From: Drouetiella sp.
GTDB taxonomy: Bacteria; Cyanobacteriota; Vampirovibrionia; Obscuribacterales; Obscuribacteraceae
Assembly: GCA_036702965.1 (NCBI GenBank)
Contig: DATNPZ010000001.1
Coordinates: 70,313 to 134,312, forward strand
Reading direction: 5' to 3'
Length of the DNA: 64,000 bases
Part shown: one piece after another, positions 9,285 through 52,456 of the stretch
How positions within the stretch are numbered: the stretch's first letter is position 1
Layout: each line of letters begins with the position of its first letter
The notes under the pieces: generated by a model
The model's database searches: none
What the model was told of the DNA's origin: nothing
What the model saw: only the letters and a program-made list of their open reading frames with translations
Translations under genes and position numbers: made by a program

Positions 9285-9308
9285 AAATTTGTAGATATCT
9301 CTTAATTT
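9285..9308. repeat. Dispersed palindromic element copy (AAATTAAGnGATATCnCTTAATTT family)
   Basis: The sequence is aaatttgtaGATATCtcttaattt. The right half is perfect and the left half is degenerate. It is intergenic. Confidence 0.6.
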
Positions 9309-12080: not shown

Positions 12081-12104
12081 AATTTAAGAGATATCGCTTA
12101 TTTT
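12081..12104. repeat. Dispersed palindromic element copy
   Basis: The sequence is aattTAAGAGATATCGCTTAtttt. It lies between convergent genes. Confidence 0.75.
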
Positions 12105-14919: not shown

Positions 14920-14943
14920 TAATTAAGCGATATCGCTTAAAAA
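14920..14943. repeat. Dispersed palindromic element copy (perfect 18-bp palindrome)
   Basis: The sequence is ataaTTAAGCGATATCGCTTAAaaat. It lies between divergent genes. Confidence 0.85.
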
Positions 14944-18857: not shown

Positions 18858-18936
18858 GCGCGTCCAGACAGAACCGTATTTAGTGCCACCGTATTAAGTG
18901 GCACAATCGCGAGCGTTCAGTTTCATAAACATAAAT

Positions 18937-19008
18937 CTGGGGTGCAAGGATTCGAACCTCGGAATGGCTGGATCAGAACCAGCTGCCTTACCACTTGGCG
19001 ACACCCCA
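18937..19008 (-). tRNA. tRNA-Gln (anticodon CUG)
   Basis: The minus-strand sequence is TGGGGTG TC GCCAAGTGGTAAGGC A GCTGG TTCTGAT CCAGC CATTC CGAGG TTCGAAT CCTTG CACCCCA G. It folds as a cloverleaf with a U1-A72 pair and G73 discriminator, as in bacterial tRNA-Gln. No CCA is encoded. Confidence 0.9.
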
Positions 19009-19024
19009 ATGTGCTTGTCTTAGC

Positions 19025-25990: not shown

Positions 25991-26014
25991 AAATTAAGAG
26001 ATATCTGTTTATTA
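25991..26014. repeat. Dispersed palindromic element copy
   Basis: The sequence is aaaTTAAGAGATATCTGTTTAtta. The left half is perfect and the right half is partly degenerate. It is intergenic. Confidence 0.65.
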
Positions 26015-31584: not shown

Positions 31585-31608
31585 GAATTTAGCGATATCT
31601 CCTAATTT
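31585..31608. repeat. Dispersed palindromic element copy (upstream flank of the IS1595-derived gene)
   Basis: The sequence is gaaTTTAGCGATATCTCCTAAttt. It lies 84 nt upstream of the ATG at 31692. Confidence 0.7.
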
Positions 31609-31691
31609 ATTGGCGTCTCAAATCAACGTCGTTTTCTTTGAACTTTTTACAGGCTTGCTGCGTAGTTGTTTATACGTATGGAGAACTGCCT

Positions 31692-32789
31692 ATGAAAAAT
31701 TCTAATTCCAACCCCAAGACCCAAAACAAAGGCACCAGAAAGGAGAAAATCAAATTAGGAAAAAGAGCTCAGTTCAACCAAAAACAACAGCGTAAATTTT
31801 TCGCTGCAATGCGACGGCTCGAGAGAGAATTTCCAACAGACGCGTCTTGCATAGATAAAATCTACCAGATGGTGATAAAGAAAAAGAGCTGCAAACGCTG
31901 TCACGGAAAACAATTCAACCATCAATCGGGCTCCCGAAAAGCCTACTGTAAAGGGTGTGATGAAGGAATGAGCTTCACAGCAGGTGACACTATTTTTTCT
32001 CACATGAAAAAAGTGCGACCATTCTTTTCAATGGTGATGCTGACCTTGCGCGGAGTGCCATTCAATCCATATCAAATACACAAGTATTTAAAAACCAAAT
32101 CTTATTCACCAAATTGGAAAGCACATCGGCGCATTATGGGCGCTGCACTTGAAGAACTGAAGAAAAAGAGCAAGAAAGTTTCGTCTTTTCTCTTTAACGC
32201 AGTTATCCAGAGACGCAGCGTGGAGACCGCGGCACGGCAACATCCAACTACTGAGCAAGTTAGCGAATTACGCTCTCAGTTTAAGAAAAAGGGGAAGCAT
32301 TGGTTCGAGAAAAAGATCATGGAATTCTGGGGCGAAACAGATTTGGATGCCGAGCACGCACGAGAAATAGCTGACTACCGCAAGGTTTATGACCTATTGG
32401 CAGATGGCCCATTGTCGCTTGAACAGATTATCGAAAAAAGTGATTTGCCGGTCGCAACACCGTTAATTGCGGTGAATATTCTGCTCGTGTGTAATTTGCT
32501 CCGAAAGACAAACAATGGACTATACGAGCACAATGACACAGCCACAGATGCACTAGATCTTCAAGATACGACACTGATTGTGAAGGTATCCGGTGCAATC
32601 GAGTTCATCGATTTTTTGTTTCAAGGCGTTAGCCGCAGATACATTCAGCTTTATACAGCTTCGTACTGGTGTTTTTCTGAACATTCAAGGAAGAAGAGGG
32701 CGAATCTTTTAAATCAATTTTGCACCAATAAATACAACGTCGCGAACATAGAAAATTATGTATCTCCACTATTGATCGATGTTGCTTAA
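31692..32789 (+). CDS. IS1595-type transposase N-terminal (Zn-ribbon + HTH) homologue without DDE domain; C-terminal winged-helix-like segment
   Basis: FPTDASCIDKIYQ...CKRCHGKQFNHQSGSRKAYCKGCDEGMSFTAGDTIFSHMKKVRPFF...SYSPNWKAHRRI follows the Zn_Tnp_IS1595 pattern (CxxC...YxCxxC..S.TAGTIF...K...WF...Y.TAW). No DDE-type acidic triad region (DExYxGG) follows. GGAGA lies upstream of the ATG at 31692. The ORF track starts at TTG 31638. Confidence 0.6.
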   Translation: MKNSNSNPKTQNKGTRKEKIKLGKRAQFNQKQQRKFFAAMRRLEREFPTDASCIDKIYQMVIKKKSCKRCHGKQFNHQSGSRKAYCKGCDEGMSFTAGDTIFSHMKKVRPFFSMVMLTLRGVPFNPYQIHKYLKTKSYSPNWKAHRRIMGAALEELKKKSKKVSSFLFNAVIQRRSVETAARQHPTTEQVSELRSQFKKKGKHWFEKKIMEFWGETDLDAEHAREIADYRKVYDLLADGPLSLEQIIEKSDLPVATPLIAVNILLVCNLLRKTNNGLYEHNDTATDALDLQDTTLIVKVSGAIEFIDFLFQGVSRRYIQLYTASYWCFSEHSRKKRANLLNQFCTNKYNVANIENYVSPLLIDVA

Positions 32790-32825
32790 AACCGCGGGTG
32801 ATAGTGGCATGCACGCATTGCTTGC

Positions 32826-32849
32826 AAATTAAGAGATATCACTTAATTT
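32826..32849. repeat. Dispersed palindromic element copy (downstream flank of the IS1595-derived gene)
   Basis: The sequence is aaaTTAAGAGATATCACTTAAttt. It lies 37 nt after the stop at 32789. Confidence 0.8.
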
Positions 32850-32909: not shown

Positions 32910-34682
32910 CTATCGTCTCGCGATAGCGCGCAGCTCTTCTGCTTTATTCAAATCACCCTGTCCAGCGCAAATATCTGCCAGAGACAAATATGTCCCAGTC
33001 AACAAAGGATCATGTGGATAACACTTTGTTTGGCGAATAGCCAGTGCCTGTTCCAACTCAACTCTTGCAGCTCGAAGGTCGTTCTTTTCTCTAAACATCC
33101 ATGAGAGATTCTCATAGGCAAAAGCAACGCCGAGGTCTGCCTCTCCGAGCTTACTGACCTTATTTGCCAGACTCATCCGGAAATACTTTTCGGACTTTGC
33201 AAAATCTTTGGACAGCTTGAAGTGGAAAGCTAAATCGTTGTACGTGTCTGCAAGTTCAACTGAATCTACACCAAATATAGTGGCACGCTTTTCAATCACT
33301 TGTTGATAGAGAACCTCAGCCTCATCATAACGACCCAAGTGCGTCAACAAACAGGCATAGACGTTTTCGGCATAAAGACATTTTGGGTCGTTTGCAGGCA
33401 AATTGTTGCCATAAATAGCGCGCGCTTCCAGAAGAAGCGCTTCAGCTTGCTGGTACATTTGCATGACATCGTAGAGAGTGCCCAAATCAAGAAGACTTTC
33501 AGCAAGAGTAAGCGGCTCAAAGTTATTGAGTCTTTTCGACTCAACGACGCGCTCATACAGAGCCATCGCCGACTTAGTGTCGCCACTCCACCTAGTTGAA
33601 TAAGCCATTCCGCTAAGCACAGGCAAAACTCGCAAAGGTTGAGCATCTGAATTCGCTTCGATCAATTTCAAGTACGCGCTCAATATTCGAAGCGCTTGCG
33701 CATGAAGTTGTTTGTCCTGCAACCTGCGGACGGCGACAGAGACGACGTAATCAAGCTGTGCGTCATCAATGCCTTTGTCAGTTACCAACATTGCTTTGCA
33801 AAACCACCGAACCGCTCCATCAAAATCTTGCTGCAGTTCAGACTGCTCACCTTGATTCCACAAATCCTTGAACGTCTCGTTTTCGAGTGGCGCATTTGCA
33901 TCCGACCACGACTTGAAGTGTGGACAAACAGGACGCTGATCCGGCAGCACTCCGCGAAGATAGTCCATGTTTCTACCGTTGTATATCTCAGGTCGGCGAC
34001 GCTCGTACCACTCATCCCAAAGAGGCGGGCGTCCGTCGACTGCTCTCAAATCGTAGCCGGCCTGATCGCTGTTCATGACGAACATTTGTGCAATAGGTTC
34101 GCCTTTTTGAATAGTAAATTTTCCGGGCTTATTAGCCAAACAAACAATGCCAAACTCAGAAGGCGACCACCATGATTCGATCATCGCCTCTAGCACAGTG
34201 AACGGCTGCCTGAGCTGGTTTGCGACACCTTTGATGTAAACGAAATCACCCAGTCTTTTTGTTCTTGCAATAAATTTGGTCTGCACTGTAAAACTACCGT
34301 GCGCAGAGTGAGTATCGATTACACAGTGACTAGCAGCATCGCTTATCGTGACTACACAATCATGCGTTTGCTCACCATCCCACTCAACTGTAAAAGTAGC
34401 CGGCGAAAGGATGTAGTAGCCTAATCCGCTCGCCATCGTCAACGGCAAACAGAATCTAGCGTGCATCTTCGTTTTCTCGTCAGCTTCCCACCACTGACGC
34501 AACATCTTTGCTTTAGTTGGCAGAAGCGACTTGTCATAGTTCGGCGGGAGAAAAAGCGTTATCGCTTGATCTAGCAACTCTTGGTTCATCTGAGCAATTT
34601 GCTCGGGACCAAATTTGGGCTTCTCCGACGTCTCTGCTTCATCGCGAGCCGGACATTTTCTTTTATCGTTATCGCTTCGCAT
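32910..34682 (-). CDS. Hypothetical protein: N-terminal ~270-aa globular domain of unknown function fused to C-terminal TPR repeats
   Basis: 590 aa. The C-terminal half has kinesin-light-chain-like TPRs (LAESLLDLGTLYDVMQMYQQAEALLLEA..., LADTYNDLAFHFKL...). The N-terminal domain (FCLPLTMASGLGYYILSP...) may be DUF6065-like, but I cannot verify that. Confidence 0.5.
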   Translation of the reverse strand: MRSDNDKRKCPARDEAETSEKPKFGPEQIAQMNQELLDQAITLFLPPNYDKSLLPTKAKMLRQWWEADEKTKMHARFCLPLTMASGLGYYILSPATFTVEWDGEQTHDCVVTISDAASHCVIDTHSAHGSFTVQTKFIARTKRLGDFVYIKGVANQLRQPFTVLEAMIESWWSPSEFGIVCLANKPGKFTIQKGEPIAQMFVMNSDQAGYDLRAVDGRPPLWDEWYERRRPEIYNGRNMDYLRGVLPDQRPVCPHFKSWSDANAPLENETFKDLWNQGEQSELQQDFDGAVRWFCKAMLVTDKGIDDAQLDYVVSVAVRRLQDKQLHAQALRILSAYLKLIEANSDAQPLRVLPVLSGMAYSTRWSGDTKSAMALYERVVESKRLNNFEPLTLAESLLDLGTLYDVMQMYQQAEALLLEARAIYGNNLPANDPKCLYAENVYACLLTHLGRYDEAEVLYQQVIEKRATIFGVDSVELADTYNDLAFHFKLSKDFAKSEKYFRMSLANKVSKLGEADLGVAFAYENLSWMFREKNDLRAARVELEQALAIRQTKCYPHDPLLTGTYLSLADICAGQGDLNKAEELRAIARR

Positions 34683-37645: not shown

Positions 37646-38569
37646 CTATGCTTCGTAGCGAATCCAACCCGTGCCTTCGTGCCCGAATTTGAAATTTGTT
37701 GGGTCAAAGATTTCTGCAAGAATCTCCAGGGATTCGACCACTCTTGGTCCAGGACGATTGAAATACTGGTTGCCGTCAGCGACATATATGGACTTGCTTG
37801 TTACCGCTTTCAACGATGCAAAGTTCGGCTTCTCTTTCAAGATAAACATCTCTTCCATTGTTCGTTTTATATCAAACCCGCACGGGCTAACAATGATGAT
37901 GTCCGGGTCATCATTGACGAGTTGCTCCCACGCCATCCACGGTGAGTGTTTGCCAGCCTCACCGTACAAATTTTTGCCGCCAGCCAACTCGATCAACTCC
38001 GGCATCCAGTTACCTGCAGCCATGAGCGGATCAATCCACTCAATACAGGCGACAGTCGGCGTCCTGGTTCTGCCTTCAGCTTTAAGCGATATCGCTTTAA
38101 TTCGAGATTGCAGTTTCTCGATCGTCGCATCGCCCTGCCCTTTAATACAAAGTCCACGCGCGACGCGTCTGATGTCATCCCAAATGTCGTCCAAACAGTT
38201 TGGCTCGAGAGAGATTATCTTCGGCTGTGATTTGATCATCTCGCAAGCTGCTGCTTCGACATCTTTCAAACTCACGGCACAAACTTCGCATTGAGCTTGA
38301 GTGATGATATGGGTGGGTGAAAGCCCATCAAGCAGCGCAGCATCGACGCGATAGACGCTAACAGCCTCCTGCAAGATAGCTTTGACCCGCTGGTCTATTT
38401 CGTAGCTCGTGCCGTCGGGGCTAAACTTTGGGGACGTGCATTGAGGCAGCTCTTTTACGAATTCAGGATAGTCACATTCGTGCGAACGCCCAACTAAATC
38501 TGATTCGAGACCAAGCGCACAAACGATTTCAGTGGCACTGGCGATTAACGAGACAATTCTGTTGGACAT
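37646..38569 (-). CDS. Periplasmic-binding-protein family 2 (BtuF / Fe-siderophore-binding-like) protein
   Basis: MSNRIVSLIASATEIVCALGLESDLVGRSHECDYP... is a typical Peripla_BP_2 N-terminus. The start was moved to the ATG at 38569, 24 nt after the stop of the upstream gene. The ORF track extends to 38746 and overlaps that gene. Confidence 0.7.
   Translation of the reverse strand: MSNRIVSLIASATEIVCALGLESDLVGRSHECDYPEFVKELPQCTSPKFSPDGTSYEIDQRVKAILQEAVSVYRVDAALLDGLSPTHIITQAQCEVCAVSLKDVEAAACEMIKSQPKIISLEPNCLDDIWDDIRRVARGLCIKGQGDATIEKLQSRIKAISLKAEGRTRTPTVACIEWIDPLMAAGNWMPELIELAGGKNLYGEAGKHSPWMAWEQLVNDDPDIIIVSPCGFDIKRTMEEMFILKEKPNFASLKAVTSKSIYVADGNQYFNRPGPRVVESLEILAEIFDPTNFKFGHEGTGWIRYEA
38082..38099. 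repeat. Intragenic near-perfect copy of the dispersed palindrome
   Basis: TTAAGCGATATCGCTTTA matches 17 of 18 positions of the perfect copy at 14923-14940. It lies inside the binding-protein CDS, at codons KAISLKA. Confidence 0.6.
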
Positions 38570-42947: not shown

Positions 42948-42971
42948 AAACTAAGCAATATCGCTTAATTT
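42948..42971. repeat. Dispersed palindromic element copy
   Basis: The sequence is aaaCTAAGCAATATCGCTTAAttt. It lies between convergent genes. Confidence 0.7.
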
Positions 42972-52432: not shown

Positions 52433-52456
52433 GAATAAAGAGATATCTCTTAAATT
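52433..52456. repeat. Dispersed palindromic element copy
   Basis: The sequence is gaaTAAAGAGATATCTCTTAAatt. It lies between divergent genes. Confidence 0.75.

Follow-up and report, generated by a model that had tools for sequence, protein, structure and literature searches.

We analysed a window of 64,000 nucleotides, the whole stretch C7:70313-134312 of an uncultured metagenome-assembled genome of Drouetiella sp. (Obscuribacterales; 4.26 Mb, 16 contigs, 75% complete), and in it a gene, here called gene A, that lies between two copies of a dispersed palindrome. By sequence and profile comparison, gene A is firmly shown to be a domesticated IS1595 transposase, in which the ends of the protein, the Zn ribbon and the helix-turn-helix (HTH) are retained and a short conserved remnant and a winged helix stand in place of the RNase-H-like DDE core. 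It is also firmly shown that the palindromes are exclusively associated with the gene family, and that their dispersal is regional and specific to each paralogue. On balance, we lean toward gene A encoding a palindrome-specific DNA-binding protein that belongs to a competence-type regulon. An earlier, sequence-only reading of the window had given the coordinates of the two palindromes, motifs of the gene product and the distances of the gene to the palindromes (84 nt upstream, 37 nt downstream), and the sequence agrees with all of these.

A transposase derivative without its catalytic core

The gene and the parts of its product are as follows.

31692-32789 (+): gene A, IS1595-transposase derivative without the DDE core; intact open reading frame of 365 amino acids, ATG at 31692, TAA at 32787-32789
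31881-32171 (+): Zn ribbon (residues 64-95) and HTH region (residues 96-160), transposase-inherited; from profile matches and hhalign
32172-32261 (+): remnant of the first catalytic strand and loop, here RRSVETAARQHPTTEQ; family consensus KRSRETPARxHPxAEQ
32346-32537 (+): DprA-type winged helix (residues 219-282), diverged in this paralogue; PF17782 at 18 bits, E 0.003
32568-32786 (+): C-terminal helical domain, homologous to the end of IS1595 transposases (GVSRRYIQLY..YWC); from NF033547 positions 171-215 and hhalign

The product contains the motifs CKRC...YCKGC, SFTAGDTIF and LSLEQIIEKSDLPVATPLIAVNILLVCNLLRK. Taken by itself, it gives no IS1595 signal in Pfam or NCBIfam, its sole Pfam match being the one to PF17782 (DprA_WH), which at 18 bits is under the cut-off. 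The ancestry is seen at the level of the family, which was collected with a three-sequence profile against 1.84 billion representatives (a word-indexed search gave one relative) and comprises 505 clusters at E<=1e-30, nearly all of 330-420 amino acids and matched end to end. In the 84 aligned members used for domain counts, NF033547 (NCBIfam transpos_IS1595) matches 63, at profile positions 6-62 and 171-215 only, and PF12760 (Zn_ribbon_IS1595) matches nine. When the family is aligned by hhalign with a bona fide IS1595 transposase of a relative, carrying both PF12760 and PF12762, the probability is 99.2% (E 1.6e-19), with confident alignment over the N-terminal ~150 and C-terminal ~60 residues and an unaligned middle. 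The IS1595-type Zn ribbon and HTH that the sequence-only reading had assigned to the N terminus are thus borne out at the family level.

The same reading had seen no DDE region, and none is found: PF12762, the DDE domain, matches 0 of 84 members, NF033547 positions 62-171 are unmatched, and the aspartates are gone in the hhalign alignment, while a control transposase (L042) matches PF12762 at E 8.9e-19. The KRSRETPARxHPxAEQ block aligns with ELDEAFFGGRNKKPGPKSP of the true transposase, a segment made up of the strand and loop that follow its first catalytic aspartate. This remnant is the best conserved block of the family (mean pairwise identity 0.48), with R175, T179 and E188 invariant, as are C67, C70, C86 and C89 of the Zn ribbon across the family alignment. 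Judged from these sequences, the gene A product cannot cut DNA by DDE chemistry. Pfam finds no HUH-Y1 (IS200/IS605-type) transposase domain in gene A or the 84 members, and neither Pfam nor NCBIfam finds a ParB-family domain (CTPase or HTH) in gene A or family members. A known anti-phage defence protein was also considered and set aside, as gene A and three other members have no PADLOC match.

PF17782 is matched by 83 of the 84 members, in keeping with the winged-helix-like segment noted earlier in a non-catalytic C terminus. Between this winged helix and the one at the C terminus of DprA from the same bacterial family, identity is 45-67%, with ELSATLTMLELAG and LPGDWY in common, and because of this identity the two share a recent origin, most simply by capture from the host dprA. 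The other domain of DprA is missing: PF02481 (DNA_processg_A, Rossmann-like) has no match in gene A or the 84 members, and the true DprA of a relative, G014, matches it at E 5.7e-74. The AlphaFold2 (AF2) model of gene A has a pLDDT of 89.7 and a pTM of 0.80, and a Foldseek search of this model against the PDB returned only generic winged-helix matches, none at E<=0.001.

The family is confined in its distribution. Within one GTDB family of the Obscuribacterales, each genome has 2-11 full-length, stop-free, divergent paralogues. Outside it, profile matches are restricted to the winged-helix region, in open reading frames of about DprA length, and the winged-helix-only frames in the f1 relatives are DprA itself (one confirmed by Pfam, seven by a shared C-terminal motif). 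Gene A occurs once in its own genome, where the paralogues share about 25% identity with it; paralogue B, at C11:523601-524650 (-), is 25% identical, and a third type (C-type) occurs as two copies, 97% identical, that are broken over contig ends. The best match to gene A within the genus reaches only 30-32% identity and its neighbouring genes are not syntenic. A comparison of orthologues and empty sites within the genus found no clean empty site, and contigs that carry the gene next to gene A are all identical to the window.

A conserved cassette and private palindromes

The layout of the locus was examined in 21 family loci that were oriented. All 21 have the same order: a GATATC-type palindrome whose arms are private comes first, a TGAAC-N17-CGT promoter of the extracytoplasmic function (ECF) sigma type second, and the gene last. 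The palindrome cores are CCGATATCGG or GCGATATCGC, and a few loci have GTTAAC, GATGAC or GTTGAC. The arms differ between loci and are often perfectly symmetric over 36-64 nt (L005, L031, L004, L007). The spacing from palindrome to promoter ranges from 16 to ~130 nt, and the promoter motif, TGAACTTTTT-N12/13-CGT(A/T), stands 25-45 nt before the start codon in all 21 loci and in paralogue B, which has two half-degenerate copies of its local variant. In the upstream region of gene A, no sigma-70-like promoter was found. The third-type copies have about five AAAGTGATATC half-sites in 200 nt (C1:335376-335560, C4:440-620), an array rather than a single palindrome, placed 250-330 nt upstream of the ECF promoter.

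The elements around gene A and the dispersed palindromes of its variant (variant 1) in the window are listed here; palindromes have no strand.

31588-31605: upstream palindrome, degenerate variant 1, TTTAGCGATATCTCCTAA; GATATC at 31594-31599, two mismatches to the consensus
31638-31664 (+): ECF-sigma-type promoter motif of gene A, TTGAACTTTTT-N12-GCGTA; -35 TTGAAC at 31638-31643, -10 CGTA at 31661-31664, 27 nt before the ATG
32829-32846: downstream palindrome, perfect variant 1, TTAAGAGATATCACTTAA; lies where gene A and the TPR gene converge at their 3' ends
9288-9305: dispersed variant-1 palindrome, three mismatches
12084-12101: dispersed variant-1 palindrome
14923-14940: dispersed variant-1 palindrome, exact
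25994-26011: dispersed variant-1 palindrome
38082-38099: dispersed variant-1 palindrome, inside an open reading frame by crude gene calls
42951-42968: dispersed variant-1 palindrome, core AATATC
52436-52453: dispersed variant-1 palindrome

The upstream palindrome stands at the position that private palindromes take at all 21 family loci. In its extended form it ends 84 nt before the ATG, and it barely folds as single-stranded DNA (-2.1 kcal/mol, z -0.3); the extended downstream palindrome begins 37 nt past the stop and forms a weak hairpin (-5.1 kcal/mol), which a terminator scan leaves unflagged. At three or fewer mismatches the variant-1 motif has 10 copies in the window versus 0.18 expected. 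Because such palindromes are frequent in the intergenic DNA of C7, the double bracket of gene A is alone only mildly improbable (~0.02, an estimate). Moreover, a palindrome downstream of the gene is absent from most family loci and is thus not a family feature. The strong evidence for a link between gene and palindrome is the family-wide upstream position, at 21 of 21 loci, and not the bracket on which the sequence-only reading had drawn.

Each variant keeps to a region. Variant 1 (TTAAG[AC]GATATC[GT]CTTAA) has 21 of its 28 sites in the genome on C7, which makes up 3.6% of it. Variant 2 (ACGAACCGATATCGGTTCGT) has 93 of 105 sites in C11 from 421 kb onward and the last 4 kb of C10, together 5.4% of the genome, with paralogue B inside. 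The paralogue neighbourhoods in this genome span 150-230 kb, each with its own variant, and across genomes the private copies are spread over the surrounding 50-230 kb, intergenic and mostly at gene 3' ends. Variant 3 (ACT[GC]AAGCGATATCGCTT[CG]AGT, also TCAACCGATATCGCTTCA) is concentrated on C4:1251-1294 kb, C6 and C15. Its patches are at C4:1286509-1294145, C6:20705-33084 and C15:7812-7895, the ECF sigma gene and comM lie inside, and tandem arrays of period 26/52 occur at C4:1289438-1289721. Outside the main variant-2 domain, six tandem copies of CATGTACCGATATCGGTACG, with a period of ~72 nt, are found at C11:337133-337491.

The same geography is seen in relatives, where the pattern W-N4-AACCGATATCGGTT-N4-W occurs at 2, 19, 11 and 5 sites in four genomes versus 0 in the control. 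In G017, eight of the 11 palindromes genome-wide are directly upstream of paralogues, and of the three solo sites, two have the variant that belongs to the paralogue on contig C9, from which they lie 36.7 kb and 35.6 kb away on either side. The 19 sites of G010 are all located in two regions. These contain three paralogues, every one with a sub-variant of its own, and on contig C2 of this genome two paralogues 153 kb apart are each ringed by theirs. G003 has the variant AAATTTTTACCGATATCGGTAAAAATTT six times over 52 kb around its paralogue, and G005 has a GATAAC-core variant over 72 kb around its own. The source genome shows the largest expansion in the genus (230 palindromes versus 20 in the control; others 49-114 versus 34-60). 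Protein identity and arm identity are weakly correlated (Mantel r 0.26, p 0.03).

Within the domains, the sites favour particular places. Coding sequence takes up 87% of C7, yet 23 of its 27 palindromes are intergenic. In the C7 and variant-2 domains taken together, sites occur in 14 of 49 convergent versus 7 of 59 divergent intergenic regions, which argues that dispersed sites avoid promoter regions rather than mark them, and a single dispersed site has an ECF promoter nearby. A promoter-linked regulon of the dispersed sites was rejected on these two grounds, and the suggestion that the protein might be a regulator is weakened by the same preference. Sequence conservation around dispersed sites extends over only ~26-34 nt, and the target-site duplications that were looked for outside the palindromes are absent at any offset or length from all 114 sites (93 of variant 2, 21 of variant 1). 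Foreign DNA or an island was discarded as an explanation because GC and skew are no different inside the domains than elsewhere in the genome. No tRNA gene lies at the C11 edge of the variant-2 domain (tRNA genes are found only at the C10-C11 join), and the edges were not annotated for integrases. A terminator reading was likewise dropped, since variant-1 hairpins are weak (-5.1 and -5.6 kcal/mol) and unflagged by a terminator scan, and some variants have their T- and A-tracts in the wrong order.

As to the surroundings of gene A, the adjacent gene (32910-34682, -) encodes 590 amino acids with DUF6065 and TPR repeats, by precomputed Pfam annotation of an identical Logan contig; in relatives, a second gene with the N-terminal domain of this neighbour stands where gene A sits here. 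C7 carries an array of 10 tRNA genes before the window (C7:28129-29533), tRNA-Gln in the window at 18936-19009, and tRNA-Pro and tRNA-SeC elsewhere, and because of these tRNA genes it looks like core chromosome and not plasmid. An IS110-family element of ~1.3 kb (DEDD_Tnp_IS110 and Transposase_20) is present in several copies, at C9:72637-73931 and at the ends of C4, C6, C7 and C16, and this repeat breaks the assembly at both C7 ends.

A putative ECF regulon and the DprA-type winged helix

A strict form of the promoter motif has 23 matches in the genome versus 2 in the control. The genes downstream, identified by Pfam, include four paralogues of the family and the following.

C4:1269548-1270186 (-): ECF sigma factor, motif before its own gene
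C6:25405-26946: comM, motif upstream
C11:456713-459337: priA, motif upstream
C11:550557-551039: yraN (UPF0102), motif upstream
C13:30468-30959: radC, motif upstream
C14:165333-167564: comEC, motif upstream
C14:182293-183585: xseA (ExoVII large subunit), motif upstream
C4:842653-845646: recJ, motif upstream
C16:38977-42429: dnaE, motif upstream

ComEC, ComM, RadC and YraN are typical natural-transformation proteins. The sigma factor is apparently autoregulated, since the motif precedes its own gene, and comM carries the motif in four of six relatives. Judged by its promoters, this gene set has the look of an ECF-controlled regulon for competence or recombination. ComM and YraN have been described as a helicase/nuclease pair that resolves the transformation D-loop (PMC13663708), and in Helicobacter pylori and Vibrio cholerae the winged helix of DprA recruits ComM and shows no binding to double-stranded DNA (10.1101/2024.10.21.619469).

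A side observation concerns dprA itself. In G010, dprA (C2:1142700-1144500) lies 7 kb from the first palindrome of a paralogue domain (C2:1151083-1160744) and 15 kb from the paralogue. No such proximity is seen in G014, and the case in G010 may be due to chance.

Proposed mechanism, alternatives and known systems

How might such a protein work? We propose that it would bind its private palindrome as a dimer, through the end-binding module derived from the transposase. The invariant CGATATCG core would be read by invariant parts of the protein and the private arms by its variable parts. Like bacterial transposases, the protein may also have a preference for acting close to its own gene. When bound, it would bring a competence or recombination partner to the palindromes. 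Recruitment of ComM by the winged helix is possible by analogy: given what this DprA domain does in H. pylori and V. cholerae, ComM would be the first candidate partner and its recruitment a concrete hypothesis. The sequence-only reading had put forward a domesticated transposase DNA-binding protein with the palindromes as its cognate sites; of this, the domestication stands, and the 21 upstream palindromes and the regional variants agree with the cognate sites, to which binding is predicted from sequence.

Several observations weigh against a palindrome-specific protein of a competence-type regulon. First, no mechanism accounts for the multiplication of near-identical 30-nt palindromes by a protein with no nuclease domain and at sites with no target-site duplications. 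Second, variant 3 (C4, C6, C15) has no paralogue in the assembly, which is 75% complete. Third, because the distance between palindrome and promoter is so variable, a fixed operator fits poorly. Fourth, dprA has no ECF promoter in the eight relatives tested. Finally, the winged helix, which had been expected to be the most conserved domain, is not (mean identity 0.30 versus 0.48 for the core remnant), and the LELxG helix is changed in paralogues A and B, so that an interface with a partner need not be conserved.

The first alternative is a selfish pair of the type formed by repetitive extragenic palindromes (REPs) and REP-associated tyrosine transposases (RAYTs). The palindromes would be tiny mobile elements, each made of two abutted insertion sequence ends, which the protein copies or maintains with recruited host enzymes, and their spread would be local because the protein acts in cis. 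Much of the evidence above would fit: the gene is flanked by its own palindromes, with a private variant for each paralogue; the sites are intergenic, prefer gene 3' ends and often form tandem clusters; copy number differs strongly between species of one genus (from the 230 of the source genome, G000, downward); dispersed copies are near-identical while the proteins are only about 25% identical; gene A has no close orthologue within the genus; and nuclease and helicase genes that are apparently co-regulated with it (YraN, RecJ, XseA, ComM) are at hand. Opposing this, the protein lacks a catalytic domain, the sites lack target-site duplications, and in G017, G014 and G007 nearly all palindromes stand before the genes. 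Action in trans by a true IS1595 transposase is ruled out within the assembly (75% complete), where no such transposase is present. We regard the selfish pair as doubtful.

A more elaborate idea, which we consider unlikely, is that the paralogues are orthogonal address-tag adaptors of natural transformation. Each would sit at its private palindromes over 50-230 kb and load ComM and YraN through its winged helix, giving region-specific control of the recombination or branch migration of incoming DNA, and the same machinery could copy the palindromes locally. A literature search found no description of such recruitment of the transformation recombination machinery.

Another alternative is a plain autoregulator, in which the palindrome is only the operator of the gene's own ECF promoter. 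The dispersed copies would then be REP-like or terminator-like hairpins with no relation to it that undergo concerted evolution by region, and the local variant would simply be found before the local paralogue too. In favour of this reading are the invariant order of palindrome, promoter and gene, the preference of dispersed sites for 3' ends, and the likeness of some variants to bidirectional terminators, with an A-tract, stem and T-tract (for example, L010 and L017). But in the variants of L031 and G003 the T-tract stands on the 5' side and the A-tract on the 3' side, the reverse of a terminator, and the variant-1 hairpins are weak (about -5 kcal/mol) and unflagged. Moreover, in G017, G007 and G014 the palindromes are mostly before paralogues, with 0 in the control, and are therefore not a general repeat class; the two G010 paralogues that share a contig, 153 kb apart, each keep a different sub-variant; and the distance to the -35 element varies. 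This explanation seems quite improbable to us.

Finally, a functionless, decayed IS1595 remnant or minimal 1.26-kb element with palindromic ends, which the sequence-only reading had offered as the seed of the solitary palindromes, would explain the transposase ancestry and the palindromes on both sides of gene A, but it is hardly tenable given the intact open reading frames in every genome, the invariant family-specific residues, the host ECF promoter conserved across genera, the confident AF2 model, the single copy of gene A, the lack of target-site duplications and the lack of a downstream palindrome at most family loci.

It is useful to set the family, on the reading we favour, beside known systems. 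IS1595 (ISXO2-like) transposases share with it an N-terminal helix (FPTE.DC..EL), the CxxC...CxxC Zn ribbon, the HTH, the C-terminal helices (G.S.KYLQ.YL..YW) and an end sequence upstream of the gene. The family differs in having neither the DDE core nor terminal inverted repeats with 8-bp duplications, and in consisting of divergent single-copy host genes with an ECF promoter and an inserted DprA winged helix. DprA is alike in this winged helix, and family genes are apparently co-regulated with comM through a shared motif. Unlike DprA, the family has no DNA_processg_A domain, and its winged helix is internal rather than C-terminal and has diverged in A and B.

REP/RAYT systems are the closest for the combination of a gene and a private palindrome. 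In both, mostly single-copy genes derived from transposases are flanked by their own short palindromes, with one palindrome family for each paralogue, and the palindromes are intergenic, at gene 3' ends, often clustered and without target duplications. However, RAYTs are domesticated IS200/IS605 TnpA proteins with an active HUH-Y1 domain, and REPs spread genome-wide, whereas the gene A family lacks a catalytic domain, descends from a DDE IS1595 ancestor and has sites confined to 50-230 kb. For the geography, ParB/parS, Noc/NBS and MatP/matS are closer, with tens of palindromes of 16-30 bp limited to one part of the chromosome and the gene, like parB, located within that part. Here the differences are that there is no sequence relationship and no Pfam match, that several orthogonal paralogue/site pairs occur in one genome, that orthologues are not conserved within the genus, and that the genes belong to a competence-type regulon. 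SETMAR, CENP-B and other eukaryotic domesticated transposases resemble the family in keeping an end-binding domain, now joined to a host domain, and in having sites that look like relic element ends; the family is instead bacterial, of the IS1595/Merlin lineage, and its catalytic domain is deleted, not mutated. The gene A family is thus a member of neither REP/RAYT nor ParB/parS and MatP/matS.

Eukaryotes offer well-known examples of domesticated transposases reduced to their DNA-binding module; the bacterial case known to us is REP/RAYT, in which the enzyme is still active. In the literature searched, neither the gene A family nor its palindromes are described. What distinguishes the family is that the catalytic core has been cleanly deleted, that a domain has been captured from the host DprA, that its promoter is shared with comM, yraN, comEC and radC, and that the private palindrome tiles only the neighbourhood of its own gene. 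If the protein binds these sites, the family would provide a natural set of orthogonal protein/site pairs, and the loading of ComM at defined chromosomal sequences becomes testable. More broadly, these genes may give the first outline of a competence-type ECF regulon in the uncultured, non-photosynthetic relatives of cyanobacteria.

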